DNA of 36,441 bases from an uncultured virus (IMG/VR IMGVR_UViG_3300043119_000141) (lineage: Duplodnaviria; Heunggongvirae; Uroviricota; Caudoviricetes). Both the position numbers and the translations under genes were made by a program. The stretch lies in IMG/VR virus record IMGVR_UViG_3300043119_000141. One strand, written 5' to 3'. Numbering within the stretch: position 1 is the first letter of the stretch; every line of letters begins with the position of its first letter. Below are positions 3,002 through 31,316 of the stretch, one piece after another. The notes under the pieces are model-generated. The model was not told the DNA's origin and searched no databases. It was given only the letters and a program-made list of their open reading frames with translations.

Positions 3002-3079
3002 TGATGTGTCCTTGTATGACTAAAAGATGAGGTAGTTTGTGATACAAGCACAAACAGGGCCGCTAAACCTTTTCCCTCT
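3002..3079 (-). ncRNA. Structured 5' leader of the HNH gene (hairpin plus SD-overlapping pseudoknot)
   Basis: Homologous to 31235-31316 with compensatory changes; see findings. Confidence 0.65.
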
Positions 3080-3116
3080 TATACATAATAACACACTTCC
3101 ACAAAGAAAAACGCCC
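3080..3116 (-). promoter_or_regulatory. Putative phage late promoter
   Basis: GGGCG-N16-TGTGTTATT-ATG-TATA; the GGGCG lies within the capsid terminator stem. Confidence 0.7.
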
Positions 3117-3137
3117 CTCCTTTTCAGGAGAGGCGTT
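3103..3137 (-). terminator. Rho-independent terminator after the major capsid gene
   Basis: - strand AACGCCTCTCCT-GAAA-AGGAGGGGCGTT followed by TTTCTTT. Confidence 0.85.
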
Positions 3138-3173
3138 CAGTACTAAGTTTCTTTACACTTAGTTTATCGACTT

Positions 3174-4091
3174 TTACAAGCCGATGGTGCCATACATATT
3201 CCTTGGATCATGCCATCCTGTAGCATAACGCTCAGAGGCTTTATAACGCATGGAATCTGTTTCAAAGTCCCCTTCACTAGAACGCTCGAGTGGGCGACGC
3301 ATCACCAACATCAAGCCATTCTCAGCGTCGGTTTGAACAAACCAAGCCTTGCTTGAAGACAAACGAGTCACCACGTGGGCGCCGTTTGGCAACATGCCAG
3401 TGGACTTGATAGGGTTCAAATCGTTGTCAGCGCCACCGGAACGCAGGACAGACTTCAAGATAACTTCTGCTTGGAATTCCAAGGCAGGAGGTACCACGAG
3501 TTGCTCCGCTTTCAGGCGAATACGCTTACCGTTGTTGTCCACTGCAGAACGGATCTGAATCAACATCTGTTCAACAGAAGTTTGAGACAAAGATGCCGCT
3601 GTAGACAACTGGTTGCTGAAGGTACGACCTTGGGAGATTGGGTGGTCGCTTGCGATCAATGTTTTACCGTCGCCACCGACATAGCCGGCAGTGAACGCAA
3701 AGTTCAACAAGTTAGCACACAAAGTCTCTTTTGTCTCGATCATGGACTGAGCCAAGTGCTTCGAGAAAGTCGAGCCGATACGGATGTGATCGCCGTCTTC
3801 CATCAAGACTTTGGTCATGGCGTATGCCAAACCATAGATCTTGTAGATGAAGCGGGTGATGAACAAAGTACCACCTTGATCATACGAGACGGGTGTACCG
3901 TCAGGCATCTCAGGGGCTGTGTTCATGCCGAACAACATCACTTCTTCGTGATAGTTACGGGGAATGCCGGTGATCTGGGTTACGAAACCCTTCCACTCGT
4001 CATCACGTTGTTGGTATACACCATCAAAGACTTCATTGAGGATAGGTTCGACTACCGCTCTAAAGTCCGTACTGCGCATTGGGGTTGCCAT
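3174..4091 (-). CDS. Major capsid protein (Mu gpT-like, HK97 fold)
   Basis: 305 aa with GGDGKTLIASDHP, LVVPPALEFQA..IL, LSSSKAWF and ERYATGWHDPR motifs; strong AAGGA SD; followed by a terminator. Confidence 0.9.
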   Translation of the reverse strand: MATPMRSTDFRAVVEPILNEVFDGVYQQRDDEWKGFVTQITGIPRNYHEEVMLFGMNTAPEMPDGTPVSYDQGGTLFITRFIYKIYGLAYAMTKVLMEDGDHIRIGSTFSKHLAQSMIETKETLCANLLNFAFTAGYVGGDGKTLIASDHPISQGRTFSNQLSTAASLSQTSVEQMLIQIRSAVDNNGKRIRLKAEQLVVPPALEFQAEVILKSVLRSGGADNDLNPIKSTGMLPNGAHVVTRLSSSKAWFVQTDAENGLMLVMRRPLERSSEGDFETDSMRYKASERYATGWHDPRNMYGTIGL

Positions 4092-4111
4092 GTGCTACTT
4101 CCTTTCTTTAG

Positions 4112-4711
4112 TTATTCTACGTTAGCGGCAACGAACACGTCGTTAGCGAGCTTGACTTGCACAACTGTTGCTGTATCACCCCAAGCATTATTGATTTCAC
4201 GGCCGAGACCTGTGACTTGCATTTGTGCTTGTGTGCCGACAGCTACTGCTGTAGGATCCAACGCGGCAGTTGAGGTGCCCAGACCACCGTTGCCGATGAT
4301 TTGACCAGATGTCACTGCTGTGAAGTTGAATTCTTGGCCGACTTGTGTGTTGGCGATCGAGCCGTTGGCTTGAACTTCATACACAATTTCGGGGTCCATG
4401 AAAATCCACATCACGACGTCGGTGGCTGTACCCAAAGCTGGGCCAAACCATTTGCTGACCGTGCGGCGGCCAGATGCGTCGGTGTATTCAACACCGGCAA
4501 ACACGCCAGCCAAACGCTTGTTTGCTGTGGGTGTGTTGCTTGCTACTACGAGAGTAGATACGCCTGCAGTCGTTGCTTCATCGAGAGAGACAGGGGTACC
4601 GCTGTAGAATACTGCACTGGTGTCATAGGCACCGGTGAAATTCAACGAACGGATAATGCCGCTAGGATGATATACGGGCTTCAGGCCAAAAGGAGCATAA
4701 GTTGCGCTCAT
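4112..4711 (-). CDS. Putative head structural/decoration protein
   Basis: N-terminal APFGLKPV, A/G/T/V-rich, immediately upstream of the major capsid gene. Confidence 0.7.
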   Translation of the reverse strand: MSATYAPFGLKPVYHPSGIIRSLNFTGAYDTSAVFYSGTPVSLDEATTAGVSTLVVASNTPTANKRLAGVFAGVEYTDASGRRTVSKWFGPALGTATDVVMWIFMDPEIVYEVQANGSIANTQVGQEFNFTAVTSGQIIGNGGLGTSTAALDPTAVAVGTQAQMQVTGLGREINNAWGDTATVVQVKLANDVFVAANVE

Positions 4712-4732
4712 TGTTTTGGTTCCTTAAAGTTG

Positions 4733-5290
4733 TTAATTAAACCGCAAATGGTTTGCGGCTCTGTGTGCATCTTTTTCCATCTCCAAGAGGCCACCTTCCA
4801 GAATAGAGCGTCCACCCTTACCACCTTCAGCCTGTGAACGCACCGTCGCAGTAATATTGCGCTGGTGTTCCAAAGGATCATCGTGGTGAAGCATTTTTGC
4901 CACTTCCTGATAAATGTCATCCGGGATCTTGAATAAGATCATCTCATTACAAGATATACAACCTTCAAACTTGCCCGAGCTCATCTTGCCTAAGTGTTCA
5001 AAGCCTTTTCCTAATTCAGCGGCTTTCACTGGCTCATAACCCAACGCGATGCGTTTGTCGATTGAATCATACTGGTTTGTCGTTGACAGCCAGCAGAGGT
5101 GCATACCGGGCAATAACCCACCCGGCACGTCCGGCAGTGCGTTGTTGGACCATTTGTCCCGAAAAGCCTCCAGCCTTTCACGCCTCACTGCTTCATCTGG
5201 CGAAGACACTTCGTTCCTCGCCTTCAGTTCATCAACACGTCCTTGCAGACGGTCGTCTAAATCTCGTGTAATTCGATTGTTAGCCATCAT
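4733..5290 (-). CDS. Phage head-module hypothetical protein
   Basis: 185-aa ORF between scaffold and capsid genes (LP...GMHLCWL...GYEPVKA). Confidence 0.7.
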   Translation of the reverse strand: MMANNRITRDLDDRLQGRVDELKARNEVSSPDEAVRRERLEAFRDKWSNNALPDVPGGLLPGMHLCWLSTTNQYDSIDKRIALGYEPVKAAELGKGFEHLGKMSSGKFEGCISCNEMILFKIPDDIYQEVAKMLHHDDPLEHQRNITATVRSQAEGGKGGRSILEGGLLEMEKDAHRAANHLRFN

Positions 5291-5297
5291 TTACCCC

Positions 5298-6320
5298 TTA
5301 TTTCGTTACTCGGTTCTTACGGTCAAACTCAGCGTAGTTGCGGATCGCTTTGGCTCGCTTGGATGGGTCGTCCCACATACCAGCGTCTTTAAGCGCCTGC
5401 ACACGTTCGCGGCTCAGTGTGAATGTGTTCTTAGCGATTGCGCTACCACTCACGTCTGTGCGGCCACTTGATGTGCCTCCGCGGCGGTTACGGTCGTTGC
5501 CGCTACCACTGCTTACTTTGCTCGTATACCGATGAGGTAAACGTTCTTTCAATCGATTGTCCAGCTCGTCCCAGTACTCTGGGTCTGCTGGGTCCCAACC
5601 TTCACTGGCCAGTGCATTGTCAATCACCTTGGCAATGCGGCTGTCCGTATCCTTACCGCTGGGGTCATACCAACGGTTTGAGTTCAGCCATTCTGTGGCG
5701 TTTTGCTGAACAACCTCAGTGACCGGACTCGGTACGTTGTTACGGGGCTGTTTGGCCTCTTCCAACTGTTTCTGTTTGAGCAGTTGAACCTGCGCCAACT
5801 TGTTCTTGGCGTTGTAGAACTGCTCCATGTATTCCATCTGCTCGGCCACGTTGCCCGCCTGCGCGGCCTGCGTTGCCTTCATCTTCGCATACTCAACGCG
5901 CGTTGTCTCGTCCTCTAACAAGCGGTCGATCTGAGCAAACTGGAATCCTACTGCGGCGTTTTCCACTTGGGCCAGTCGGCGCTCAAGGGTCTCGTTGCGG
6001 CGTTCCAGTGCACTGATCTTATGCTTTGCACTTGCCTCGCGTTGCTTAGTGAGGTCCTTCTTCAGGCGGCGCTCTTCTCGACGCGCGGCTCGCAGGGCCT
6101 CTCTATCTTCATCCGTTTCGTCCGCATCATTAGTCTCGCCACCTTCAGCAAAACCTTCTGCGTCGTCGTCGTCTTTATTGTCGTCGGCTTCTTTGTTCTC
6201 TTCTTCACCCTCGAAAGGGTCTTTGTGATCTTCCATGGCCGCTAACACGGTGCCATCATCACGCTCTTTAATTGCAATGTCCTCGCCGGACTGCATCTCA
6301 GCTTTTTGCACTGATTTCAT
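5298..6320 (-). CDS. Putative scaffolding protein
   Basis: Acidic N-terminus, long coiled coil, and position between portal/GroES and the capsid gene. Confidence 0.65.
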   Translation of the reverse strand: MKSVQKAEMQSGEDIAIKERDDGTVLAAMEDHKDPFEGEEENKEADDNKDDDDAEGFAEGGETNDADETDEDREALRAARREERRLKKDLTKQREASAKHKISALERRNETLERRLAQVENAAVGFQFAQIDRLLEDETTRVEYAKMKATQAAQAGNVAEQMEYMEQFYNAKNKLAQVQLLKQKQLEEAKQPRNNVPSPVTEVVQQNATEWLNSNRWYDPSGKDTDSRIAKVIDNALASEGWDPADPEYWDELDNRLKERLPHRYTSKVSSGSGNDRNRRGGTSSGRTDVSGSAIAKNTFTLSRERVQALKDAGMWDDPSKRAKAIRNYAEFDRKNRVTK

Positions 6321-6331
6321 AACGAAATCCC

Positions 6332-6760
6332 TTATTCAACAAATGCGGGGAACATGGTCCTCGCTGTTTCAAAACTATCAATTGCACAAATGACCTCACG
6401 GTCCTGCAAAATGATAAACACTACCTCGCCGTCACCGTGCGGTACCGCCCAGCGGTCGCCACCGTACTTGATCACGCGAACTAGATCTCCCGGCTCTGCC
6501 CAAGGGCCTTCTGGCCATGGTTGCAAAGTGTTAAGATCTTTATAAGCCAGTGGACCTACACCAACGACCTTTGCAATTACCTCGTTCCATTTCTCTGTGG
6601 CTTTTGTATCATTAACTAAAATGATGCCGCCCTTTGAAACGTCCTTGGCTTTTCGCAATTGAACGATGATTCGGTTGCCTTTCAGCTTCACACCCGGATC
6701 AACAACCGGGAAACAGTCGGATTCGCTCCGGCCGTCGACCTGATATTTACTCTCAGTCAT
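6332..6760 (-). CDS. groES: Co-chaperonin GroES-like protein
   Basis: GNRIIVQ...SKGGIIL...AKVVGVGP...GDLV...KYGG...IILQDREVI matches the Cpn10 pattern. Confidence 0.9.
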   Translation of the reverse strand: MTESKYQVDGRSESDCFPVVDPGVKLKGNRIIVQLRKAKDVSKGGIILVNDTKATEKWNEVIAKVVGVGPLAYKDLNTLQPWPEGPWAEPGDLVRVIKYGGDRWAVPHGDGEVVFIILQDREVICAIDSFETARTMFPAFVE

Positions 6761-6942
6761 TCAGATTCCTCGTCCTCTTTCAGGACACTGTTGATAATAT
6801 CCAAAGCCTCTTTCAGACCTTGGCCTCTTCCTACTAGCTGGTTGTATTTGTCCCAGCTTTCGACTCCATTCAAAACGGCGCCTTGCAAAAACTCGACCGC
6901 CTCTTTGATCTTGAAGATCGATTCGTACAACGGGTCTTTCAT
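6757..6942 (-). CDS. Small hypothetical protein
   Basis: AAGGAG SD; GVESWDKYNQLVGRGQGL; ATGA overlap with groES. Confidence 0.75.
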   Translation of the reverse strand: MKDPLYESIFKIKEAVEFLQGAVLNGVESWDKYNQLVGRGQGLKEALDIINSVLKEDEESE

Positions 6943-6955
6943 CAAAAACCCTCCT

Positions 6956-6992
6956 TATAACTAAGTACACACAATTGTGTGTACTTCCGCCC
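6956..6992 (-). promoter_or_regulatory. Putative phage late promoter overlapped by a 24-bp palindrome
   Basis: GGGCG-N16-TGTGTACTT-AGT-TATA; perfect palindrome AAGTACACACAATTGTGTGTACTT at 6963-6986. Confidence 0.75.
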
Positions 6993-6996
6993 TACA

Positions 6997-7173
6997 TTAT
7001 TTTTTAAGGCCCTTGCTGTTCACTGGGGGCACTTGGTACAGAGGTGCCTTGGGTGCTTGCTTAGAGCCAGATGGGCCTTTTTCTACAGGTGACCCGGGGC
7101 CGCCAGCGTAGCCGGGCTTGCCTGTGATCATGTAGCTTTTACGAAAACCCATGTTGTCGTTTGATGTTGCCAT
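6997..7173 (-). CDS. 58-aa hypothetical protein (not in ORF track)
   Basis: MATSNDNMGFRKSYMITGKPGYAGGPG...GLKK*; AGGAG SD; TAATG overlap with the portal stop. Confidence 0.7.
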   Translation of the reverse strand: MATSNDNMGFRKSYMITGKPGYAGGPGSPVEKGPSGSKQAPKAPLYQVPPVNSKGLKK

Positions 7174-9920
7174 TATTGTTCTCCTGTTGGGGTTTGTTGT
7201 TGTTGCATTAACTGCTGTTGTGCTTGCATCGCCGCATCGTGTGCACGTTGCTCTTCTGCTTGCGCTTGATCCAGTCCATGCTTACGCAGGTCTGCGTACG
7301 CTTGGCGCTCTGCCTCCAACGCAGTCATCTCTTGTGAGTGTTGCTGTTGAACCTGTTGCGCGCTCAGTGCTTGGTCTGCCGCGATCATTGCCACGCGCTC
7401 TTTGGAGGCGTTGTTGATGTCCGCAATAGCCACCTTGGCCGCGTTGTCCTGATCGGCCAACTGTTGCTGTAGTCCCAGCTTGGCTTGGATCTCTGCCAGC
7501 TTGGCCTGCATGTCGCGCACCTTGTCCGCCATCTCGGCTTCCATCTTCTCGCGCTCCAGTTGGAACTTGGCCTGCGCCTCTTCTGTCTTGCGCTTTGTCT
7601 CTGCCATCTGAGTCTGGATGAGTGCCTGTGACGTGGGGTCTGCCATCGCCGCGGACTGCATCTGGTTCTGTTTGGACTGTTGCATCTGTTGCACCAACTG
7701 CTGGATGATCGGGTTGATGCCCTCGAACGTCTTGGTTGCGTCCTGATTGACCAACTGGGCCGCCATGGCCAGCGCCTCTTGGGCGGCTTGGTCCAGCTTG
7801 CGCTCTTCGTTCAACTTGAACGCGTCCTCACCACCAGCGGCATGAGACACGTAGTTGCGCATTGACTGCAGGTAGTGCAGTGTCAGGTGTTGCTTGATGT
7901 GCTCCAACATCAAAGGCGTCACGCCGGGGCCAATGAGTGGGTTGCCACCGTACGCTGGGTCCATCATGTAAGCCAAGTGCACCTTCAAGTGGTCGATGTG
8001 GCTCTGGTCTGGGAACGCGGCCGCCGCGTGGCCCATTGTCATCTGAACGTTCTCTAGCGCGGGGTTGCTCTCTGTCGAGCCTTTGGGGTTTGGCATGACC
8101 TTGTCAATGTCAGGCACCTTCATCAGCTTCATCACGCGCATGTGCGCCTCGCGCACGTCGTACATCTGCGGCGCCTTCTCTGCCAACTGCAACACCAACT
8201 GCGCCTGTGTAAGACGCTGTGTTTCGCTGAAGATGTTAGGGTCAGAGATTGGGCTGACGTCTGAGTTGTCCTCAAAGTCTTCTACCGCGATCTCAGCGCC
8301 GGACTGGTTGTCCATGTCTTCCAAGTACCAGCAGTTCAGACGAGACAGAACCTGCAAGCTCTTGGCCTGACTGCGGTGCAGGCGGGCGTGAATGCTGGAG
8401 AACACCTTCGAGCCTTGCTCGATCATGGCCTGTGTTGTGCCAACGGGGGCGTTGCTGTTCATGTCAGCAATACGGCCCTCGCTTGTCTTCACAACACCTT
8501 TAGCGGCGTCAGTGAGCCAGCCTAACAGGTTGTACAGGACAGAGGACGGCGGGTTGAACGGCAGTGGCATTGCCAACTTGCGCACGTCGTCCACACCGGG
8601 CGAACCCTCGATCTCAACGACCTGAGTTGGCTCAATGCGGTCAGACTGTCCACCAATACGACCGCCCTTGAGTTTGAGCATGGTCTGGCTGTTGTTCACG
8701 TGCGCCGCGTCCATCAGGGCGCGCAGTGAACCAGTCAAGGCCGCTGAGAGGCCACCAATAAGGTGTGGCATGCCGATAGCATAAGCACCGCGCCAAGGAA
8801 TAAACTTGTACTCGATCATCCAGTCGAGCTTGCGCATGCGTGTGTCGCCTGACTGCCAGTTACGGTACAGACCAACCACCTTGCCTGTGATCTCGTCCAC
8901 CGTCATGATGTACGGTGCGCGCTTACCTTCTGTCAGTGGGTCGTCTTCCAAACGCAGGAACGTTGTGATCTCGTACACACGGCGCAAACCGTCCACGTTC
9001 TTCGTTGGCTCTTCCTTGCCCTCGATCTTGTTGTTCGCCTTCTCAGACTTGGTCTGGTTGTCGGGGTTCAACTCGGCTGTAAAGATCTCAATGTCACGGT
9101 ACTCACCAGACTCGACACGTTGCTTGAACATGTCCTCTGTGATGTCTTGCTGTTCTGTGATCCGCGCGGCAGAATAAAAATTGGTAGACGCAAACGGCAA
9201 CAGCACGTTGTCAATCGGGATCCACTCGGGCACTGGGCGGTTGAGGTCCTTGTCAAAGCGCCACTTGAGGTACTGTGAGCCGCCAAGGGGAAGCTGTGTG
9301 AACAACTGCTCCATCTCGTCACGGTACTCTTCAATCTGCTCAGTCAACTGCCAGTTCAGGAAGTTGGCTTTACGCTGTGCCGTGTCAATTCTATCTTGGT
9401 TGGCTTTGCCCTTGATGTACGTACGCACCAAGCCGTCAGCAGGCAACAACTCTTTGGACGCGTTAGCCGCAAAGTCAACGCAGGCTTCTGCCATGATGGG
9501 GTGCACCACCTTGCTGGCGCCTTGGAACGTCGCGCCACCGGGGGCGTCGTTGCCCATGCCAGTGCGGCGGATGCCTTCTTCGTACTGCTTGTCACGCTGT
9601 TTGCGAGACTCACGGTCCACTTCAATTAAGTCAAGGTACTCAAACGCAAGTGTGTCCAGCGTGCCGTCGTCCAACTCTTCAGCCAAGTTGGCGTAGAACT
9701 CTGGGTTCTCTGACGGCTTTTCTGTCTCCATCATGTTGACCACAACGGAGCCATCCTCCATCTCAATGATCTCAGACTCTACGTCGTCAATGTCCAGATC
9801 CAGCGCCTCGGCCAGATCTTGGACTTCCTTTTCCGTGTCTACTTCTTTTGTCGTCTCGTCTTCTGCGTAAGACAACGCGGACAGGTTACCGCCCTGCTGG
9901 AGTGGAATGATTGGTTGCAT
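7173..9920 (-). CDS. Portal protein
   Basis: 915 aa, near terL; VHPIMAEACVDF.A, NFLNWQLTE, APVGTTQAMIEQG..VFSSIHARLH motifs; long Q-rich coiled-coil C-terminus. Confidence 0.85.
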   Translation of the reverse strand: MQPIIPLQQGGNLSALSYAEDETTKEVDTEKEVQDLAEALDLDIDDVESEIIEMEDGSVVVNMMETEKPSENPEFYANLAEELDDGTLDTLAFEYLDLIEVDRESRKQRDKQYEEGIRRTGMGNDAPGGATFQGASKVVHPIMAEACVDFAANASKELLPADGLVRTYIKGKANQDRIDTAQRKANFLNWQLTEQIEEYRDEMEQLFTQLPLGGSQYLKWRFDKDLNRPVPEWIPIDNVLLPFASTNFYSAARITEQQDITEDMFKQRVESGEYRDIEIFTAELNPDNQTKSEKANNKIEGKEEPTKNVDGLRRVYEITTFLRLEDDPLTEGKRAPYIMTVDEITGKVVGLYRNWQSGDTRMRKLDWMIEYKFIPWRGAYAIGMPHLIGGLSAALTGSLRALMDAAHVNNSQTMLKLKGGRIGGQSDRIEPTQVVEIEGSPGVDDVRKLAMPLPFNPPSSVLYNLLGWLTDAAKGVVKTSEGRIADMNSNAPVGTTQAMIEQGSKVFSSIHARLHRSQAKSLQVLSRLNCWYLEDMDNQSGAEIAVEDFEDNSDVSPISDPNIFSETQRLTQAQLVLQLAEKAPQMYDVREAHMRVMKLMKVPDIDKVMPNPKGSTESNPALENVQMTMGHAAAAFPDQSHIDHLKVHLAYMMDPAYGGNPLIGPGVTPLMLEHIKQHLTLHYLQSMRNYVSHAAGGEDAFKLNEERKLDQAAQEALAMAAQLVNQDATKTFEGINPIIQQLVQQMQQSKQNQMQSAAMADPTSQALIQTQMAETKRKTEEAQAKFQLEREKMEAEMADKVRDMQAKLAEIQAKLGLQQQLADQDNAAKVAIADINNASKERVAMIAADQALSAQQVQQQHSQEMTALEAERQAYADLRKHGLDQAQAEEQRAHDAAMQAQQQLMQQQQTPTGEQ

Positions 9921-11572: not shown

Positions 11573-11596
11573 GTTTTTGAAATTATTGGGACCTTC

Positions 11597-11633
11597 TATA
11601 ACGAATCACCCACAAATGAGGGTGTTTACGCCC
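11597..11633 (-). promoter_or_regulatory. Putative phage late promoter
   Basis: GGGCG-N16-TGGGTGATT-CGT-TATA. Confidence 0.75.
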
Positions 11634-22110: not shown

Positions 22111-22502
22111 CCAAAGACGAAGCGTTGAAACTGACAGAGATACTAAACCACGCGATATGGGACAGCGTGCAGGTTGTCATACAGCCGGAACCGCAACAGC
22201 CTAAGTGCAACCCCCACCCCAAGGCACCACACGGGCTTGTGAGGGGCGCAAGCTACAGTGCCGCGCGCTACGTGTGCGAGTGCGAAATGTGGGACCCCTA
22301 CGAGGCCGGCAGGGAGGCAGGCGTGCAGGCCATGTTGGACTACGACATGCCCACACCCGAGCCTGTGCCGTACACACCACTCTCAACCAGTGAGATTGTC
22401 GAATGTGCTGTGAAGGTGTGGAGGTTTGATGCCAACGACGTGAGTGCGAACACAATCAAATTTGCGCGTGATATTGAGCGCTTAACCTTGGAACGACAAT
22501 GA
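22107..22502 (+). CDS. Hypothetical protein
   Basis: ATGA overlaps; CNPHPKAPHG...YVCEC. Confidence 0.7.
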   Translation: MTKDEALKLTEILNHAIWDSVQVVIQPEPQQPKCNPHPKAPHGLVRGASYSAARYVCECEMWDPYEAGREAGVQAMLDYDMPTPEPVPYTPLSTSEIVECAVKVWRFDANDVSANTIKFARDIERLTLERQ

Positions 22503-23023
22503 GACGCCAACTACTGACAGCCGAACAAGAGATTGAACTACACCACCGGATTGTGCAGGGTGACGAGGAGGCCCACGAGGCCTTGGTGGAGGCCAACATG
22601 GGACTGGTGGTGTACATTGTGCAGAAGTTGCCGCAGTGGGACATGGCGGGCAACATGACAAGGGACGACCTACTGCAAGAAGGTTACATGGCCCTGATGA
22701 AGGCGGCGCACAGGTGGAAGCCGCAGGGAAGGTTTGCAAGCTACGCGCGCACACTGATCAAGAGCCAAGTGCTCAGAGCCATTGAGAACAAGGGCCTGAT
22801 GATCCACGTGCCCGTGGCGGTGCAGGAGGACCTGCGCAAGATCAAGCGGGTGGAGACGGAGTTGGCCCAAGTGTTGGGCAGGGACCCGACCACCAAAGAG
22901 GTGGCCAAGATCACAGGCCTGACAGAAAGCAGGGTCCGTGATAGACTGGTGGTGAGCCAGAGACAACCGGTCTCATTGGACGCGTTCAAGAAGGACCAAG
23001 TAACGGAAGAAGAATATGATTGA
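22499..23023 (+). CDS. Sigma70-family sigma factor, regions 1.2-3 only (no region 4)
   Basis: LLTAEQEIEL (1.2), LVEANMGLVV (2.1), DLLQEGYMALMKA (2.2), RFASYA (2.3), LGRDPTTKEVA (3), PVSLD, then a stop 12 codons later. Confidence 0.9.
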   Translation: MRRQLLTAEQEIELHHRIVQGDEEAHEALVEANMGLVVYIVQKLPQWDMAGNMTRDDLLQEGYMALMKAAHRWKPQGRFASYARTLIKSQVLRAIENKGLMIHVPVAVQEDLRKIKRVETELAQVLGRDPTTKEVAKITGLTESRVRDRLVVSQRQPVSLDAFKKDQVTEEEYD

Positions 23024-23891: not shown

Positions 23892-24082
23892 GCGAAGACA
23901 CAAACGTACCTTTAAATTTCCTAAGCCCCAAAGGAACAGGAACACTAATTTATTCAAAACGCACATGGGTTGGTCTGACGGATGAGGACAAATCGTTATT
24001 TAGTTCGTGGCTTGACCATAAAACAGATGCTGAAGTTTTTACAGCCATTGAAGCCAAACTCAAGGAGAAGAACTATGGCTAA
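23888..24082 (+). CDS. Hypothetical protein (WVGLTDE...AIEAKLKEKN type)
   Basis: ATGA overlap. Confidence 0.7.
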   Translation: MSEDTNVPLNFLSPKGTGTLIYSKRTWVGLTDEDKSLFSSWLDHKTDAEVFTAIEAKLKEKNYG

Positions 24083-24550: not shown

Positions 24551-24774
24551 AACGTGCTAGAATGTTAGAATTGGCCGAGCAGGCGGGTTTTGTCATGTGG
24601 TCCAAGGACAGCGACTGGAAGCCGGAAGGCGCCACAATTGATTGGTCCTGTGACTACGACAAAGAGTTGAGGAAATTCACTAAACTGGTGGAGGCAGAGT
24701 ATGAGTGGTTGGCTAATCGCCCTGACAGGGCTAATCTATGCGGGTGTTGCTGTAGAGCAGGGGCTAAAAGGTAA
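24547..24774 (+). CDS. Hypothetical protein
   Basis: ELAEQAGFVMW...IDWSCDYDKEL. Confidence 0.7.
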   Translation: MKRARMLELAEQAGFVMWSKDSDWKPEGATIDWSCDYDKELRKFTKLVEAEYEWLANRPDRANLCGCCCRAGAKR

Positions 24775-24846
24775 CATGCCTATGTGTTTAACGTACCTTG
24801 GCTACGCGTTTGCAAACGTCGGCCTGTACAAACTAGCGAGTTGAAT

Positions 24847-25038
24847 ATGATCTCAGAAGTTGACTTGAAAGACTTTGACTACATCAACGTAGAGCACGTG
24901 AAAGAGAACGACGACGGGTCCTGTGACTGCAACATTAAAATGGGACCACTGGCAACAAGGTACCTGCTGAATTTTGCTTTTATTGGCGTGCTCAAAGGCG
25001 CGATCGCTGAAGGCAAAATGTACACACCGAAGGACTAA
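24847..25038 (+). CDS. Hypothetical protein
   Basis: Fills the operon; start uncertain. Confidence 0.6.
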   Translation: MISEVDLKDFDYINVEHVKENDDGSCDCNIKMGPLATRYLLNFAFIGVLKGAIAEGKMYTPKD

Positions 25039-25041
25039 GAC

Positions 25042-25377
25042 ATGACAGACAACGAGCGCGAAGTATACGAGGCCAACCTAAAACGGTTGCCACCCGAGCA
25101 GGCGGCCCAGTGGACCGAGGAAGTGAGGGAGGCGTGGCTACGTGTGCGCCGCGCCCGTAAGGTGTGGAAGGCGACGCGAACGCCGGCCACGCGCTGTCTA
25201 GGGTCTGTCAAGGAGGACGGGCGCCTGACGCCGCTGTTCATACCAAACACCGAGTACATTCGCCTTGAAGAGGCGTGGATCGACTACGCGCAAAACTACC
25301 AACCCAAATACATATTCGAAGAGCGTGCACGTGCAGGCATCGACGAGGATGACTCATACGACTGGAAAAAAGCATGA
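25042..25377 (+). CDS. Hypothetical protein
   Basis: AAGGA SD. Confidence 0.7.
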   Translation: MTDNEREVYEANLKRLPPEQAAQWTEEVREAWLRVRRARKVWKATRTPATRCLGSVKEDGRLTPLFIPNTEYIRLEEAWIDYAQNYQPKYIFEERARAGIDEDDSYDWKKA

Positions 25378-25580
25378 AGGCTACACTTGAGTTCGAGTAC
25401 CCCGAGGACGAGGACAAGTTGCGGTACGCCATACACGGGCAGACGGCCATCATGGCCCTGTTGCAGATTGAAGCGCAGTTACGTCAACACTTCAAATACG
25501 AGATGCCAATGGAAGACGTGTTCAACAACGTTAGCGAGATAGTCAACGAGACGCTAACCCTTTGTGGGGAAAACCAATGA
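25374..25580 (+). CDS. Phage hypothetical protein
   Basis: MKATLEFEYPEDEDKLRYAIHG; ATGA overlap. Confidence 0.75.
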   Translation: MKATLEFEYPEDEDKLRYAIHGQTAIMALLQIEAQLRQHFKYEMPMEDVFNNVSEIVNETLTLCGENQ

Positions 25581-25933
25581 AGAAAATCATTTACGCAATT
25601 TACTTGTTTGGTGCAATACTGGCGTCGGTGACCGCTTATTTTTTGGACCCAATCACGGCACTGGCCATCGTGCTAGTCATGCCCATGGTGGTTATTACCA
25701 TACTGGAGATGCAAGGCATCGTGCAGTTCGGGTTTCACCCGATGGAAGAAGACAACAGCGCTATCAGCAAGGCCACGCGCGAAGACATGACGGCGATAGA
25801 GGCCGCAGAGAAGTTCGGGCAGGTGATCGTCAACGAAATGGACGAGCAAATTAAAGAGGCAGAGTTGCAGTTAATGGAAATGAAACAGGCGCGCGAGATT
25901 GCGTCAGACCACATTCGCGGGGTGAAGAAATGA
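25577..25933 (+). CDS. Two-TM membrane protein with coiled-coil tail
   Basis: Hydrophobic N-terminal hairpin; ATGA overlap. Confidence 0.7.
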   Translation: MKKIIYAIYLFGAILASVTAYFLDPITALAIVLVMPMVVITILEMQGIVQFGFHPMEEDNSAISKATREDMTAIEAAEKFGQVIVNEMDEQIKEAELQLMEMKQAREIASDHIRGVKK

Positions 25934-26298
25934 GAGTACGCGTTCACATACAATACAAAAACAACCCGCTCAATCAGGTTGTGCTATCCTATTCCTCTTT
26001 ACGAGAAGCGGCGCGTGTGCTAGACTGCGACCGAAAGCACTTGGCCCTGATGGTCAAGGGCGAAAGAAAACAAACACAATCACCACTTGGAAACATCATA
26101 AAGGTAGAGGCACATGAACAAGCCCACAGTACTAGAAGTTCAGTTCGAGAATATCCCGATCAGCCTGAAGAAAATCTCCCGTTGGGTTTTGTGGCGGCTA
26201 GTCGAGGTTGGGGAAGGGTCGAACAAGCGGTGGTCAAAGTTACCACTGCAATCAAATGGGTCGTCGGCAAGTTCCACAAACCCAACAACATGGTGTGA
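25930..26298 (+). CDS. NUMOD1-like HTH protein
   Basis: YSSLREAARVLDCDRKHLALMVKGERKQ; the 3' part overlaps the primase gene. Confidence 0.55.
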   Translation: MRVRVHIQYKNNPLNQVVLSYSSLREAARVLDCDRKHLALMVKGERKQTQSPLGNIIKVEAHEQAHSTRSSVREYPDQPEENLPLGFVAASRGWGRVEQAVVKVTTAIKWVVGKFHKPNNMV

Positions 26299-28429
26299 CT
26301 TTCTCCATGCACAAGAAGCTTATCAAACAGGTCGCTTCGATGGTGTTGGCTTTGTCTTTGACGGCAGTGACGGCATCATGGGCATTGACTTGGACGACTG
26401 CATGGATGCCGTTCAGGGTCCAGCGTCTCTTACGCCTGAAGCGCAGGCCATTAAAGACGCAGTCTTGGGATACGCAGAGGTAAGCCCCTCAGGCACCGGC
26501 ATCAAAATCTTCACACGCGCGCAGTTAAACGCCGCGCACGTAGACCACGAGAAGGGGCTCGAGATATACCCCAAGGGCCGTTACTTCACGGTGACCGGCC
26601 ACACCCTTGGCGGCTCGGTGCCGGACCAAGAGCAGGACCTACAGCACATCGTGCCCGCCCGCCGCAGTTACCGCTCGGGTGACTCGTTTGCGGACTACAG
26701 CCCGCCGCTTGACGGTTGGGACTTGGCCCGCGTTGAGACCGACCTGCTCACACTGCTTGACCCTGAATGTGGGTACACAGACTGGTTGGCCGTGGGCATG
26801 GCCCTGCACCACCAGTTTGGCGGCGACTACGAGGCGCTTGAGTTGTGGGACCGTTGGTCTGACAACGACGGCGCGTGCGGGTCGTACGCGGCAGGACACT
26901 GTGCGGCCAAGTGGGACAGCTTTGGCGGCACTGGGGGCACGACACTGCGCTCACTGGTGTTCAAGGTCAACAAGGCCAAGGAGGCCGCGGTGGTGGCCAA
27001 CGGCGAGAAGGTGCTCACAGGCGGGCCACTGAACCACGCCAAAGAGTTCTTGGCGAGCCAGTTCACGTGCGAGGAAGGCACGTCACTCACAACGTACGCG
27101 GGTGACATGTTCCAGTACAAGGGCACGCACTACCAAGACATTGAAGAGGCCACGGTGCGCTCCATGCTGTACACGTTCTTGGACCGTTGCAAGAAGTACG
27201 ACAAGAAGCAGAACCTGATGCCGTTCAACCCAACACCTGCGCATGTGTCGTCGATCCTAGACGCGGTGCACGCGGTGACCCACCTGCCCAACACGGCCAA
27301 CACCAAGCCGCCGGTGTGGCTTGAGGGGTACGGCAAGGACAGGCCAGAGCCGAGCAAGTTGGTCTCGCTTGAGAACGGTATTTTTCACACCGAGCAGAAC
27401 GTGTTGATCCCACACAGCTTGGGGTTTTTCACGCAGAACAGTTTGCCGTTTGCATACGACCCCAACGCGACGTGCCCGACGTGGGAGAAGTTCTTGCAAG
27501 ACATTTGGCACGACGACCCACAGAGCATTGACTGCCTGCAGGAGATGTTCGGGTACATTCTGAGCGGTGACTCGTCACAGCAGAAGTTTTTCAACATCAT
27601 TGGCCCACGCCGATCCGGCAAGGGAACGATCAACAAGGTGCTCGTGAGCCTCTTGGGGCAACACAACACGGTGGCGCCACAACTGGATGAGTTATGCGAC
27701 ACGTTCGGCCTACAGCCATGGCTTGGCAAGTTACTCGCCTCATTTACGGATGCCCGTGCTCCGGAAAGAAATCGTGGTGCAGTTGTCTCACAGCTCTTGA
27801 GGATTGTGGGCGGCGACACGGTGACGGTGAACCGCAAGAACAAGGAAGCTTGGAGCGGTTATTTGCCGACGCGTATCGTGATCTACTCGAACGAGGCCTT
27901 GCAGTTGACGGAAAACTCCAACGCCTTGACGGGCAGGATGATTGTGCTAAAGATGAGCAATAGTTTCTATGGCAAAGAGGACACCATGTTGGCCGACAAG
28001 TTGGCCAAGGAGTTGCCTGCCATTTTCAACTGGGCCATTGCAGGACAACAGCGACGCGTGGCGCGAGAGGGCCAGAGGTTCGAGCAACCAACAACAGGGC
28101 GCGAGTTACTGGAGTTGATGGAGGAGTTGGGCAACCCGATTGGATCGTTCGTGACAGACGCGTTGGTGTACGACCTAGAAGCAAAGGCGATGAAGGATGA
28201 CGTGTTCGTGTGTTGGCGCAAGTGGGCCACCGCTAAGAACATACCGCCCGGAACTGACATGGCGTTCAAGCGCAGGTTTCTTGCGGCAACGCAGGACCAC
28301 CGCGTGACAGCGGCAAGGGTGCGAATTGACGGCGAGTCGGCCAACGTGTACCTTGGCATCAGGCTCAACCCGAAGGCACAGAAGTACGTGGACAGTATCA
28401 GCAACTTTGAACGCGAGGACATATTTTGA
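26114..28429 (+). CDS. Primase-polymerase (NrS-1-like) / PriCT-2 / D5-like SF3 helicase
   Basis: GIDLDDC, EVSPSGTGIKIF, EIYPKGRYFTVTG; YTDWLAVGMALH...WDRWS; Walker A GPRRSGKGT. Confidence 0.92.
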   Translation: MNKPTVLEVQFENIPISLKKISRWVLWRLVEVGEGSNKRWSKLPLQSNGSSASSTNPTTWCDFLHAQEAYQTGRFDGVGFVFDGSDGIMGIDLDDCMDAVQGPASLTPEAQAIKDAVLGYAEVSPSGTGIKIFTRAQLNAAHVDHEKGLEIYPKGRYFTVTGHTLGGSVPDQEQDLQHIVPARRSYRSGDSFADYSPPLDGWDLARVETDLLTLLDPECGYTDWLAVGMALHHQFGGDYEALELWDRWSDNDGACGSYAAGHCAAKWDSFGGTGGTTLRSLVFKVNKAKEAAVVANGEKVLTGGPLNHAKEFLASQFTCEEGTSLTTYAGDMFQYKGTHYQDIEEATVRSMLYTFLDRCKKYDKKQNLMPFNPTPAHVSSILDAVHAVTHLPNTANTKPPVWLEGYGKDRPEPSKLVSLENGIFHTEQNVLIPHSLGFFTQNSLPFAYDPNATCPTWEKFLQDIWHDDPQSIDCLQEMFGYILSGDSSQQKFFNIIGPRRSGKGTINKVLVSLLGQHNTVAPQLDELCDTFGLQPWLGKLLASFTDARAPERNRGAVVSQLLRIVGGDTVTVNRKNKEAWSGYLPTRIVIYSNEALQLTENSNALTGRMIVLKMSNSFYGKEDTMLADKLAKELPAIFNWAIAGQQRRVAREGQRFEQPTTGRELLELMEELGNPIGSFVTDALVYDLEAKAMKDDVFVCWRKWATAKNIPPGTDMAFKRRFLAATQDHRVTAARVRIDGESANVYLGIRLNPKAQKYVDSISNFEREDIF

Positions 28430-29079
28430 GCGATACATATTTTCATGTGGATGTCGGTTTCTATCCAGTGCCTGTAAAGATGTGCTTTACACCAAAAGCG
28501 TTTTACAAGGTATTGAAGGATCATGGGATCACAGCGCAACCAGAGATGGCACCGCTTGAGTTGGGCATCGCGGAGACACACAGCTTTTCTTCAACCAAGG
28601 AAGCGATTGTCGTCGTGGTGTTTAGTTTGGCGGAGTGCATTGACAACGCGGCCCTGTTGGCCAGTGTGGTGGCCCACGAGGCCACACACGTAATTGCTCG
28701 GGTACTTGACCATATTGGCGAAGACGAGGAGGACTTTGGCGAAGAGACGCGGGCGTACCTGACCGAGTGGTTGGTGCGTCAAATGTTCACGGCTTGTTTA
28801 GTGGAGGTTGGCAAAATTGCAAGACGAAAAGAAAATCGAGCAAAGGCTGGTCAAAAAGGTCAAGGAGAAGGGGGGCCTGTGCCTGAAGTGGGTAAGCCCG
28901 TCGACGACGGGGGTGCCGGACAGGCTAGTGTTCCACAACAGCAAGGTGATCCCAGTGGAGTTGAAAGACCCAAAAGGAAAACTAAGCGCAAGGCAGGAGT
29001 TGATGATCAAGGAGTTGCAAGCAAGGGGAGTGCAGACGCACGTCCTGTCAAGCGAACAACAGGTCGACGAATTTGTTAA
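28426..29079 (+). CDS. HEXXH-motif protein (possible zincin)
   Basis: VAHEATH...EETRAY; TTG start after GAGGA; low-complexity tail overlaps VRR-NUC. Confidence 0.6.
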   Translation: MSDTYFHVDVGFYPVPVKMCFTPKAFYKVLKDHGITAQPEMAPLELGIAETHSFSSTKEAIVVVVFSLAECIDNAALLASVVAHEATHVIARVLDHIGEDEEDFGEETRAYLTEWLVRQMFTACLVEVGKIARRKENRAKAGQKGQGEGGPVPEVGKPVDDGGAGQASVPQQQGDPSGVERPKRKTKRKAGVDDQGVASKGSADARPVKRTTGRRIC

Positions 29080-29089
29080 CAGCTTATGA
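28817..29089 (+). CDS. VRR-NUC domain nuclease
   Basis: EKKIEQRLVKKVKEKGGLCLKWVSP...GVPDR...VELK..KGKLSARQ; TTG 9 nt after GGAGG. Confidence 0.88.
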   Translation: MQDEKKIEQRLVKKVKEKGGLCLKWVSPSTTGVPDRLVFHNSKVIPVELKDPKGKLSARQELMIKELQARGVQTHVLSSEQQVDEFVNSL

Positions 29090-29568
29090 CCGACGACGAA
29101 GTTCATGAAGCCAAAAAGCGCAACCACATTGCTAAAACAATGTATAACGTTAAACGGCGCGCCCTTGCCGCAGGGATTCCATTTGAGTTGGATCACAACT
29201 ACCTGTGTGCAATCGCGCCTGAATACTGCCCAGTGTTTAAGACCAAGATCCTTTGGGGGTTTGGACACTCAGGCACTGTGGGGGTTAGCGGCCCAGACTC
29301 ACCAAGCTTGGACCGAATTATTCCAGAAAAAGGATACGTGAAAGGCAACGTAGCATGGTTAAGCAACAAAGCAAACATGATCAAGTCCAACGCAACACAA
29401 GAGGAGCTATACAAGGTTGCGGACTGGACACACGAAAAAATAAAGGAGGTAAATAATGGAGGTGCACGACCGCCCCCACTTGGCGACCCTGCAAATACCT
29501 ATGTCACTCGCCCCACGCGCTATCGCATTATTAACGACGTTACAGCAAGGGAAAGAGCAGGCTACTGA
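29086..29568 (+). CDS. HNH-like (beta-beta-alpha-Me) endonuclease
   Basis: CPVF...SPSLDRIIPEKGYVKGNV..LSNKANMIK. Confidence 0.8.
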   Translation: MTDDEVHEAKKRNHIAKTMYNVKRRALAAGIPFELDHNYLCAIAPEYCPVFKTKILWGFGHSGTVGVSGPDSPSLDRIIPEKGYVKGNVAWLSNKANMIKSNATQEELYKVADWTHEKIKEVNNGGARPPPLGDPANTYVTRPTRYRIINDVTARERAGY

Positions 29569-30905
29569 TGTTGTCATTAAAAAATTTACACCCCTACCAA
29601 CAGCGACTGGTGCAAGAGAGCAAGACTCAACAGCACATGGGACTGCTGATGGACATGGGACTGGGCAAGACGATCACGGCGCTAACAATACTCAGCCAAC
29701 TTGAGGGCAAGACGCTGATCATTGGACCAAAGGCAGTCATTAAAAACGTTTGGAAACAAGAGGCACAAAATTGGACGCACACAGAAAAGATGACTTTTGC
29801 CCTCATTGTGGGAAGTCCACAAGAGAGGGTGAAAGCGTTGCAGAGCAATTCGGACGTGTATTTGATCAATGTCGAGAACGTGGTCTGGCTGTTCGAGCAA
29901 GCCTCATTGCCGCGTTGGAAGACATTAGTGATCGACGAATCGAGCAGGTTCAAAAACCCGTCGTCCAAACGTTGGAAGATGCTGAAAGGGCATTTGAAGA
30001 ATTTCGAGCATCGGTACATCCTGACGGGTACACCAACACCAAAGTCGTACCTAGATTTGTGGACCCAAGTAGGCATTTTGGATTTGGGCCAACGACTCGG
30101 GAAATCGATGACTTCATACAAGGAGAAGTTCTTCGAGCCCGAGACAAGAGATCGTAGAACCGGCATGGTGTGGAGTTGGAAGTTGCGACCCAACGCCAAG
30201 GAACAGATCGACGCCCTGATCGGGGACATTTGCGTGTCCCTGCGCAAGGAGGACTACCTGACCATGCCACAGCGGCAGGACATTGTGCACACCATCGAGT
30301 GGGAGAAGGCGGCCAAACAGGCCTACAACACCATGCGCAAAGAGATGGTGGTGGAGGTGGAGCAGGAGACGCTGACCGCGGCCAGTGCCGGCGTGCTCAC
30401 GGGCAAGCTGTTGCAAATGACCGCGGGGTCCATCTACTCAGAGACCAAGCAGGTGATTGACATTCACGACACCAAACTGGAGTACCTGACCGACATGTTG
30501 GACAACACGCCGACCATTGTGTTCTATAACTTCAAACACAGTTTAAAACGGCTACAAGCCGCGATTCCTGAGGCGGTGCTACTTGACCCTGACGACGGCC
30601 AAACAATCGCCCTATGGCGCTCTGGTAAGGTCCCAGTGCTACTTTGCCACCCTAAAAGCGTGGGCATCGGCCTGAACCTGCAGTGCAACGTGGGAGACAC
30701 GGCGCAGATCGTTTGGTTCGACCTGCCATGGTCCAGTGAAGACTACCTACAAGCCAACGCGCGCCTGTTCCGGCAGGGGCAAGAAAAGCCTGTGATTATT
30801 CATCACCTGACCATGCAAAAAAGTATTGACAGTCAGGTCATGGATGTGCTAGAAGGAAAGATCGACATGCAAAACGCGTTAATGAACGCCCTCAAACTAC
30901 AATGA
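29568..30905 (+). CDS. SNF2-family helicase
   Basis: DMGLGKT, IDESS, LTGTP, GIGLNLQ, QANARLFRQGQ. Confidence 0.93.
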   Translation: MLSLKNLHPYQQRLVQESKTQQHMGLLMDMGLGKTITALTILSQLEGKTLIIGPKAVIKNVWKQEAQNWTHTEKMTFALIVGSPQERVKALQSNSDVYLINVENVVWLFEQASLPRWKTLVIDESSRFKNPSSKRWKMLKGHLKNFEHRYILTGTPTPKSYLDLWTQVGILDLGQRLGKSMTSYKEKFFEPETRDRRTGMVWSWKLRPNAKEQIDALIGDICVSLRKEDYLTMPQRQDIVHTIEWEKAAKQAYNTMRKEMVVEVEQETLTAASAGVLTGKLLQMTAGSIYSETKQVIDIHDTKLEYLTDMLDNTPTIVFYNFKHSLKRLQAAIPEAVLLDPDDGQTIALWRSGKVPVLLCHPKSVGIGLNLQCNVGDTAQIVWFDLPWSSEDYLQANARLFRQGQEKPVIIHHLTMQKSIDSQVMDVLEGKIDMQNALMNALKLQ

Positions 30906-31198
30906 TTAAATTCAACGCCACCATTCGCAGGCTTTCAGACGAAGAGCCGGATCCTATTGAACACGAGGATTCGTCCTCAGAGCCTACGATGAACGGCACG
31001 GGTTGGGCGCCATGGGACGCCGACACCATACAGGACGTGTACAACGTGGTTTCCGAGAAGTTAACCCCTAAACAAAGGGAAATCATTGAGGCGCACCTGT
31101 CTGGGTATAACTACCACGATTTAGCGGTGACAGAAAAGTATTGGAGATACAATTTTGCAATGGCTGTAGCCAAAATACGAAAAGAATTAAAACTTTAG
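30902..31198 (+). CDS. Stand-alone sigma70 region-4-like HTH protein
   Basis: KLTPKQREIIEAHLSGYNYHDLA...AVAKIRKEL resembles sigma 4.1/4.2; acidic N-terminus. Confidence 0.6.
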   Translation: MIKFNATIRRLSDEEPDPIEHEDSSSEPTMNGTGWAPWDADTIQDVYNVVSEKLTPKQREIIEAHLSGYNYHDLAVTEKYWRYNFAMAVAKIRKELKL

Positions 31199-31234
31199 GT
31201 AGGGTTTTTTTCAAAACATGGGTAATTAGATATA
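31198..31234 (+). promoter_or_regulatory. Putative phage late promoter (degenerate upstream box)
   Basis: GGTAG-N16-TGGGTAATT-AGA-TATA. Confidence 0.65.
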
Positions 31235-31316
31235 AGAGGGAAAAGGATGGCCATCCCTGCTTTAGTGCCTGAATCACTAAGCTACCTCGATCTTTTAGCT
31301 ATTCAGGAGCACATCT
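31235..31316 (+). ncRNA. Structured 5' leader of the endonuclease gene (homolog of 3002-3079)
   Basis: Stem UUAGUG/CACUAA; loop CCUGAAU pairs with AUUCAGG overlapping the SD. Confidence 0.65.

Follow-up and report, generated by a model that had tools for sequence, protein, structure and literature searches.

We identified two copies of a structured RNA leader in DNA from an uncultured tailed phage (IMG/VR record IMGVR_UViG_3300043119_000141, Caudoviricetes), of which a stretch of 36,441 nucleotides, referred to here as the window, was analyzed. The copies lie about 28 kb apart, and each ends in the start codon of a nuclease open reading frame (ORF), HNH-like in the first case and of the Endonuclease_7 type in the second (Table 1). 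A preliminary description, made from the sequence alone, had placed the leaders at 3083-2999 on the minus strand and 31231-31319 on the plus strand (ATG included), and its sequences agree with the window letter for letter. A 16-mer at the 5' end which is common to both leaders occurs exactly twice in the window (0.09 matches expected by chance), and three or more matches to it were obtained in none of 100 shuffles. Two covariance models were built, R1 containing the helices P1, P2 and P3 described below and R2 containing only P2 and the pseudoknot. A covariance-model search of the window returned only the two copies at E ≤ 1, and with R1 copy 1 scored 93 bits (E 2.6e-25) and copy 2 scored 74.2 bits (E 1.6e-19). 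Within the HNH ORF is a partial look-alike of the leader's 5' end, with three mismatches to the 16-mer (2755-2770) and an R2 score of 16.8 bits, E 0.05 (2726-2768; both minus strand). It has neither P3 nor a pseudoknot and is probably due to chance.

The two nucleases had been described as unrelated, which is too strong, as both match phrog_1035 and show weak N-terminal BLASTP similarity (E = 0.003). They are of different types with respect to the catalytic domain, which is an Endonuclease_7 Pfam domain in one and an HNH-like C-terminus in the other. A Pfam search with the HNH-like ORF gave no match.

Table 1. Features of the window related to the two leader copies.
Feature	Position	Strand	Basis
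Leader copy 1, before HNH-like ORF	2999..3078	-	Sequence, R1, pair counts
Copy 1 P1 5' strand GAGG	3078-3075	-	
Copy 1 J1/2 GAAAA	3074-3070	-	
Copy 1 P2 hairpin	3069-3058	-	
Copy 1 J2/3 CUG	3057-3055	-	
Copy 1 P3 5' strand	3054-3049	-	
Copy 1 P3 loop (pseudoknot 5' strand)	3048-3042	-	
Copy 1 P3 3' strand	3041-3036	-	
Copy 1 J3/1 CUA	3035-3033	-	
Copy 1 P1 3' strand CCUC	3032-3029	-	
Copy 1 linker	3028-3018	-	
Copy 1 pseudoknot 3' strand	3017-3011	-	
Copy 1 rest of Shine-Dalgarno sequence and spacer	3010-3002	-	
Copy 1 ATG	3001-2999	-	
Leader copy 2, before Endonuclease_7 ORF	31236..31319	+	Sequence, R1, pair counts
Copy 2 P1 5' strand GAGG	31236-31239	+	
Copy 2 J1/2	31240-31244	+	
Copy 2 P2	31245-31256	+	
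Copy 2 J2/3	31257-31260	+	
Copy 2 P3 5' strand	31261-31267	+	
Copy 2 P3 loop (pseudoknot 5' strand)	31268-31274	+	
Copy 2 P3 3' strand	31275-31281	+	
Copy 2 J3/1	31282-31284	+	
Copy 2 P1 3' strand CCUC	31285-31288	+	
Copy 2 linker	31289-31300	+	
Copy 2 pseudoknot 3' strand	31301-31307	+	Overlaps Shine-Dalgarno sequence AGGAG at 31305-31309
Copy 2 ATG	31317-31319	+	
HNH-like homing endonuclease ORF, 171 aa	2486..3001	-	HNH-like C-terminal motif; phrog_26577 and phrog_1035 'endonuclease VII' matches
Endonuclease_7-type homing endonuclease ORF, 159 aa	31317..31796	+	Pfam PF02945, E 2.7e-25
Inserted cassette 1: leader, HNH ORF, second 19-nt promoter-like element	2467..3076 (approximate)	-	blastn, empty-site relatives
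Inserted cassette 2: T-run, 19-nt promoter-like element, leader, Endonuclease_7 ORF	31193..31777	+	blastn, 58 relatives
19-nt element, diverged copy, directly 5' of leader 1, overlaps P1 5' strand	3076..3094	-	Degenerate 19-mer match
19-nt element directly 5' of leader 2, overlaps P1 5' strand	31220..31238	+	Degenerate 19-mer match
19-nt element, native copy, downstream of HNH cassette, before next structural gene	2445..2463	-	Degenerate 19-mer match
19-nt element, further copy	11593-11611	-	Degenerate 19-mer match
19-nt element, further copy	32414-32432	+	Degenerate 19-mer match
Intrinsic-terminator-like hairpin after major capsid gene, ~30 nt upstream of leader 1	3109..3138	-	13-pair stem, then T-run

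The Leader Is a Covarying RNA Structure With a Pseudoknot Into the Shine-Dalgarno Sequence

The preliminary description had proposed a stem of which the loop pairs with the Shine-Dalgarno (SD) sequence. Both elements were recovered, and two helices that it had overlooked, P1 and P2, make the fold a three-way junction plus a pseudoknot. In P1, the four bases directly 5' of GAAAA (junction J1/2) pair with the four bases after (C/A)UA (junction J3/1). P2 is a short hairpin with GAAAA on one side and CU(G) (junction J2/3) on the other. P3 is a longer hairpin, and its whole 6-7-nt loop pairs with bases just 5' of and into the SD sequence. The linker that follows P1 is variable and contains no conserved element. 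For the 56-nt core of copy 1, the combination of P1, P2 and P3 is the minimum free energy structure predicted by ViennaRNA. A different pairing, of a 5' AGGG with the CCCU before P3, was suggested by ViennaRNA for copy 2. It was rejected because the 5' strand varies across the family (GGAC, GAGC, AGGC, GCGG and others) and is in each case complementary to the strand after J3/1 rather than to the fixed CCCU.

Relatives of the two copies were found in viral and metagenome contigs with a degenerate pattern derived from both, and the family is much wider than the window, with at least 108 distinct leader sequences across phage contigs; all leader counts given here are lower bounds. The contigs that carry a leader range from 4 kb to 230 kb and represent very different contexts. 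A later scan used a 19-mer covering only J1/2, the commonest P2 and J2/3, leaving P1 free, and yielded an independent set of at least 122 loci with 97 distinct sequences, R1 being run on the first 100 of these loci.

In agreement with the preliminary description, the two copies show covariation in both the stem and the loop-to-SD pairing, and the same pairs are kept in 8, 29, 34, 80 and 74 distinct relatives in successive alignments. In the hand-checked seed (A2, eight rows, all four helices) both sides have changed in 11 of 21 pairs, and the observed score was reached by none of 500 shuffles. The paired-cell counts, which are inflated by kinship among the sequences, amount to 97.5% in A2, 97.3% in A3 (29 rows obtained with R1; 12 of 14 pairs doubly changed) and 96.5% for the pseudoknot in A4 (34 rows obtained with R2, one of them spurious; 6 of 6 pairs doubly changed). 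In the larger sample, P1 is 99.7% and P3 95.5% paired in A5 (103 R1 matches, 80 distinct rows), with four pair types at each of the four P1 positions, and the pseudoknot is 98.2% paired in A6 (95 R2 matches, 74 distinct rows), with all six pairs doubly changed. Altogether, 23 different P1 strand combinations are present among the distinct leaders. Alignments A3 to A6 were fitted to the model structures, and circularity was checked by shuffle and slide controls, by the hand-checked seed and by RNAalifold. The latter, applied to A4, which had been fitted to P2 and the pseudoknot only, recovered P3 independently and predicted one further pair, which joins the final base of J2/3 to the initial base of J3/1 (G-C in 27 rows, U-A in 2, G-A in 4). 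G-U pairs are frequent throughout, and one P2 pair is GU in all 80 rows of A5, indicating that the fold is specific to the sense strand and thus to RNA. These results confirm that the leader is a real covarying RNA structure and that its pseudoknot takes in the 5' part of the SD sequence.

The position of the pseudoknot relative to the SD sequence is well conserved. Its 3' strand overlaps the first 1-3 SD bases, and its last base is a G within the SD sequence whose partner, the first nucleotide of the loop, is nearly always C (32 of 33 rows in A4 and 72 of 74 in A6). Of 26 parsed leaders, 25 have 4-14 nt between the end of this strand and the AUG, with 22 of these falling in the range of 7-14 nt; the distance in the 26th reflects a mis-assigned start codon. 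The unpaired junctions are nearly constant as well: J1/2 is GAAAA in 100 of 104 sequences, J2/3 is CUG in 98 of 104 and J3/1 is CUA in 86 and AUA in 17 of 104. The counts for J1/2 and J2/3 are biased, since the patterns used to collect most of the sequences fix J1/2, P2 and J2/3, whereas the count for J3/1 is free of this bias. In one member (L518) J1/2 reads GAAGA, and the loop and length of P2 are variable across the family.

The Leader Precedes Nuclease Genes of Many Families

The leaders were found by RNA pattern or model alone, so that the genes behind them provide an unbiased read-out. Every identifiable downstream ORF encodes a nuclease, of the Endonuclease_7, GIY-YIG, LAGLIDADG, PD-(D/E)XK or Vsr-like type or one of several HNH types. 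In a first set of 27 ORFs, which includes 3 short fragments that were outside the family scan, 14 match nuclease Pfam families (Endonuclease_7, HNH, GIY-YIG, LEM-3_GIY-YIG or NUMOD3), 9 more match endonuclease PHROGs and one (L359) has no match. Four more ORFs, from relatives of the window phage, belong to endonuclease VII or homing endonuclease PHROGs. The Pfam matches in a second set of 88 distinct ORFs comprise Endonuclease_7, HNH, HNH_2, HNH_3 with AP2, GIY-YIG with NUMOD3, NUMOD1, LAGLIDADG (L778), PDDEXK_5 (L812), DUF559 (L742) and zf-His_Me_endon. The sole non-nuclease Pfam match above the curated cutoff in this set is DUF4379, a treble-clef zinc finger. Among 20 representatives of the second set that have no Pfam nuclease match, 18 match an endonuclease PHROG and one more does so weakly. 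The portability of the RNA module that had been proposed from the two copies is borne out, as the leader precedes nucleases of at least six catalytic families.

The reverse comparison starts from the proteins. Among 80 loci that encode relatives of the HNH-like protein, the leader is present only at the window's own, and among 73 that encode relatives of the Endonuclease_7 protein it is present at 4. These numbers reject inheritance of the leader together with a protein family. Most homologues of either protein lack the leader, which is not part of any one protein lineage but a module that became attached to many nucleases.

A clear member of the family is present in a cultured phage, Escherichia phage EP_H11 (OP688485.1, 22496-22573; R1 58.8 bits), where it stands before a 303-aa ORF. 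This copy gives a laboratory system in which the leader can be studied. A blastn search with the EP_H11 leader in 50,697 phage records returned only the self-match, blastn being too insensitive for this family. Some large viral contigs (L739, L754/L755, L789, L740/L800) carry two or three leader cassettes. Several cassettes on large contigs directly follow tRNA-like sequences, similar to homing endonuclease genes in the tRNA regions of large phages.

Both Copies Are Part of Inserted Cassettes

The capsid locus of the window was compared by blastn with the best 80 of 512 major capsid relatives in viral contigs (89-100% protein identity). The leader is found downstream of the capsid gene in only 3 of these 80 relatives, and the HNH ORF is absent at the site in 77. 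In relatives with an empty site, homology to the window ends at about 3076, within the first P1 bases, and is picked up again at about 2467. A stretch of about 22 nt in the empty-site relative matches both ends of the cassette and is a 19-nt promoter-like element discussed in the next section. At the second site, which was compared in 58 relatives through the locus of a 98-aa ORF, the Endonuclease_7 cassette is missing in 56. It is flanked in the window by a 21-nt target duplication (31171-31192 and 31777-31798) that restores both the end of the upstream ORF and the SD sequence of the downstream gene. A leader-bearing cassette is present within 2.5 kb in 12 of the 58 loci, at three different sites. 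Two relatives are complete, one with a single leader copy and the other with none.

The empty-site junctions show that the inserted DNA includes the leader at both sites, in line with the mobile module that had been suggested. Sporadic presence, precise boundaries in intergenic positions, insertion at several sites and a nuclease ORF are the behaviour of free-standing homing endonuclease cassettes. By sequence comparison, both sites are thus assigned as free-standing homing endonuclease cassettes in which the leader starts where the insert starts, and homing itself is predicted.

The window phage belongs to a very abundant uncultured group that is distantly related to Caulobacter phages RW and GB2A, and its closest cultured relatives by capsid are Caulobacter phages (66% identity). 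An R1 search of Caulobacter phage RW and of MW202545, of which the capsids are 65-66% identical to that of the window, revealed no leader. The major capsid gene itself (3174-4091, minus strand) gives Phage_capsid_4 and Mu-like gpT Pfam matches.

Promoter-Like Elements Suggest a Probable Position of the Fold Near the 5' End of the Message

The preliminary description had also proposed a shared promoter and had pointed to a TATAAG hexamer before both copies. The hexamer is not conserved across the family, and a scan for consensus sigma-70 promoters was empty before both copies. What does hold is that both are directly preceded by a 19-nt element of the type GGKTAATTA-NN-TATARGAG. The window has five copies of this element (0.04 expected), all of which precede a gene and lie on its coding strand. 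The window also contains a sigma-like ORF (22499-23023, plus strand, 174 aa) with sigma-70 regions 2 and 3 only, and the 19-nt element may be a phage-specific promoter that is read by this sigma-like factor.

The consensus sigma-70 scanner also missed -10 elements ending in C before other members of the family, and these were scored by script. Of 107 distinct upstream regions, 30 contain a sigma-70-like -35/-10 pair with a distance of 5-9 nt from the end of the -10 element to P1, many of the 30 coming from one lineage, compared to 3, 0, 0 and 0 at control offsets. The -10 element alone is present at that offset in 40 of the 107 regions (2-6 at control offsets). Seven of the 107 leaders are preceded by tRNA-like 3' ends about 10 nt upstream of P1, and no promoter-like element was noted inside the fold. 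From the promoter-like elements 5-9 nt before P1 and the tRNA-like ends, the fold is probably located at or next to the 5' end of a dedicated homing endonuclease message.

The repeated 19-nt element raises the question whether conservation acts on the DNA, so that the leader would be a recombination or homing target, a promoter or operator, or a recent duplicate, and its RNA structure would have no function. The element is common to the upstream regions of both copies, the cassettes are bounded by short duplications, and T4 intron endonucleases bind operator sites near their own promoters, according to the available part of PMC2988022. This explanation is nevertheless very improbable. Compensatory changes keep three helices intact in more than 100 distinct sequences, the G-U pairs would become A-C mismatches on the opposite strand, the pairing partner of the loop always adjoins the SD sequence, and the fold persists in lineages of which the flanking promoter-like sequences differ.

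Comparison With Known Regulatory RNAs

The supposition that the motif is not a described one was upheld for Rfam 15, of which none of the 4227 models matched anywhere in the window at the gathering threshold. At E ≤ 10 the two leaders gave chance-level matches only (9.6-15.1 bits), to CRISPR-DR38, two snoRNAs, Plasmid_R1162 and a plastid intron. No description of the motif was found in the literature searched, which included the available parts of PMC10690425, PMC5737381, PMC2988022 and 10.64898/2026.09.22.753630.

Among phage homing endonuclease genes, I-TevI, I-TevII, I-TevIII and segB of T4 and mobE of Aeh1 are regulated by RNA structures that sequester the ribosome-binding site (RBS), according to the available part of PMC2988022. 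These structures and the leader are alike in being cis-acting mRNA structures over the RBS of a homing endonuclease gene, with tight, low expression as the presumed aim. They differ in that the T4 and Aeh1 structures are individual simple hairpins that share neither sequence nor fold, whereas the leader is one conserved junction with a pseudoknot in more than 100 cassettes. The analogy to T4 drawn in the preliminary description thus applies to the RBS, which lies within an RNA structure in both cases, and fails for the promoter. In the T4 type, relief is given by a late promoter inside the structure, whereas in the leader family the promoter-like elements are upstream of the whole fold. Transcripts should therefore carry the complete structure, and the internal late start used in T4 would not be applicable.

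In the preQ1-II, SAM-II and guanidine-III classes of translational riboswitches, a pseudoknot closes over the SD sequence. The leader resembles these classes in size (about 55-90 nt), in having a conserved unpaired core and in a pseudoknot strand that overlaps the SD sequence before the AUG. The riboswitch classes serve genes for metabolite enzymes and transporters, whereas the leader serves selfish nucleases, with no ligand suggested and no Rfam match.

A catalogue of structured RNAs from IMG/VR (PMC10690425, tables mmc6 and mmc8) lists, in the part available, the unnamed candidates DNAVirus_7989, 1486, 1290, 8080 and 8377. Like the leader, these are in aquatic viral contigs, 51-105 nt long and at most 25 bp upstream of HNH, Endonuclease_7 and GIY-YIG genes, and two of the rows carry mixed nuclease families, as the leader family does. 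The candidates are listed with 1-4 covarying bases and were compared with the leader family by their listed descriptions only, on which basis they may overlap it in part. The main text of that paper, as available, does not mention HNH and has 'homing endonuclease' in the reference list only. On sequence grounds, and with the catalogue compared at the level of descriptions, the leader is a new RNA family among putative cis-acting, RBS-masking leaders of homing endonuclease genes.

A structured RNA before a homing endonuclease message has a precedent in the GIR1 lariat-capping ribozyme, which is located directly 5' of such a message in twin-ribozyme group I introns (PMC2219692, available part). 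GIR1 is derived from a group I intron, is found in eukaryotic nuclear introns and caps the mRNA; in sequence, size and context the leader is unlike it. The precedent bears on the idea that the leader is an element of RNA processing or stability, i.e., a self-cleaving ribozyme, a structure recognized by a host RNase or a protection of the 5' end against decay. The start of P1 coincides with the cassette boundary and follows -10 elements at 5-9 nt or tRNA-like ends at about 10 nt, and the fold is compact and pseudoknotted with conserved junction bases, as would be expected for such an element. No ribozyme family of Rfam 15, among them the hammerhead, twister, twister-sister, pistol, hatchet and HDV-like classes, matched the leaders even at E ≤ 10, however, and neither cleavage nor protection needs the invariable pairing to the SD region or a fixed distance to the AUG. 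Transcription that starts at P1, as the promoter positions suggest, would also leave little upstream RNA to remove. A processing or stability role is therefore regarded as quite unlikely.

The Leader as a Putative Translational Throttle

We consider the leader to be probably a portable translational throttle for homing endonuclease cassettes, a reading that applies with or without a trigger. The pairing of the P3 loop with the stretch before the AUG, including the first 1-3 SD bases, would hide the RBS in the folded state. By analogy with the T4 leaders, we infer that the pseudoknot represses translation: the folded leader would hinder binding of the 30S subunit, and a potentially toxic nuclease would be made at a low level, whatever the local transcription where the cassette lands. 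The module moves as part of the cassette and has been combined with nuclease ORFs of many families. In most cases it would lie immediately downstream of a promoter or a tRNA gene, with P1 at or next to the 5' end of the RNA.

Several observations weigh against this reading. The stability of the leaders is ordinary (ViennaRNA z-scores of -0.1 to -0.8 relative to shuffles), so that a simple lock that is always closed is not obvious from the folding energy alone. The pseudoknot reaches only the 5' part of the SD sequence. Three variants (L712, L686 and L711) have a shorter J1/2, a different P2 and GCG at J2/3, and three downstream ORFs (L359, L819 and the 303-aa ORF of EP_H11) have no family match in Pfam or PHROG. 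Finally, the conservation of the junction exceeds what a plain SD-masking helix needs and points to a tertiary fold or a bound partner. Ordinary folding energy together with conserved junction bases leaves room for a ligand, a protein or a catalytic role.

Recognition of a partner would make the leader a sensor, either a riboswitch or a protein site, in which a small molecule, an ion or a widely shared factor binds the junction and opens or stabilizes the pseudoknot, thereby restricting nuclease synthesis to a certain state of the cell or of the infection. Conserved unpaired junction bases beside freely covarying helices are the usual signature of a binding pocket, and the pseudoknot-over-SD platform resembles that of the translational riboswitches mentioned above. 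Any partner would have to be universal, given how much the contigs that carry the family differ in size and context. The downstream nuclease genes, on the other hand, have no metabolic theme that names a ligand. The apparent conservation of the junction is inflated by the search patterns, and the P2 loop and length vary while the three variants alter J1/2 and J2/3. A candidate partner gene consistently nearby was not noticed in passing, no dedicated search having been made. A sensor of this kind is on balance rather unlikely.

The throttle is the preferred reading of the leader. A more far-reaching proposal, to which we give a limited chance, is that the leader is a new sensing or catalytic RNA class, a plug-in controller captured by all major homing endonuclease families. 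If true, the leader would couple production of the nuclease to a universal signal from the cell or the infection, or would act in processing of the message, and would be the first riboswitch or ribozyme class to have mobile DNA itself as its regulon.

Homing endonuclease genes are among the commonest selfish elements of phage genomes. To our knowledge, the means by which they hold a DNA-cutting enzyme at a tolerable level wherever they insert have been described for only a few T4 genes, all of which have different hairpins. One fold that serves HNH, Endonuclease_7-like, GIY-YIG, LAGLIDADG, PD-(D/E)XK and Vsr-like cassettes implies an exchangeable module for expression control, and a common leader implies one constraint acting on the elements as a group. 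The phages that carry them differ widely in size and include a cultured E. coli phage. With its very strong covariation the leader is a clean candidate for a new Rfam family. It can serve as a marker for free-standing homing endonuclease genes and new nuclease families in metagenomes, and is a candidate for a compact part with which translation could be controlled tightly and independently of context. If the junction binds something, the leader would be a new class of regulatory RNA.

Related Motifs and Other Observations

A pattern scan of bacterial and archaeal genomes gave at least 120 loci, none with an SD-linked pseudoknot, and established no host copy, which does not show that such copies are absent. 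Of these loci, 79 (L168-L246) were searched with R1 and the remaining 41 (L247-L287) were screened by script; the best R1 scores of 16-26 bits are explained by the search pattern. The only candidates from cellular genomes among the loci listed are L178 and L182 (Sutcliffiella and Bacillus chromosomes), which have a 7-bp helix AUAGAGG/CCUCUAU around GAAAAGG...CCCU, a weak second hairpin and no SD-linked pseudoknot (R1 20-26 bits). Both are probably due to chance plus the effect of the search pattern.

A related-looking motif was found in six viral contigs (L422, L056, L061, L076, L090 and L150), which have the purine-rich 5' part TAGGGAAAAGG-YTAGAGTCCCTGGAG in common. The middle part is different, there is no obvious loop-to-SD pairing, the ATG has no clear SD sequence and R1 scores are at most 15.7 bits. 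This motif may be a sister family or a degenerate form of the leader.

In a viral contig from the relatives of the window phage (L725/L737), a leader with a compensated P1 (GCGG/CCGC) has ATA in the place of the ATG and a frame of only 19 codons behind it, which looks like a decaying cassette that still keeps the fold. A further indel is located downstream of the second cassette: an ORF with an Acb2/Tad1-hairpin domain (31995-32225, plus strand; Pfam E 1.3e-09) is itself the indel, as the stretch 31998-32225 is lacking in most of the 58 relatives and the flanks are 81-93% identical.

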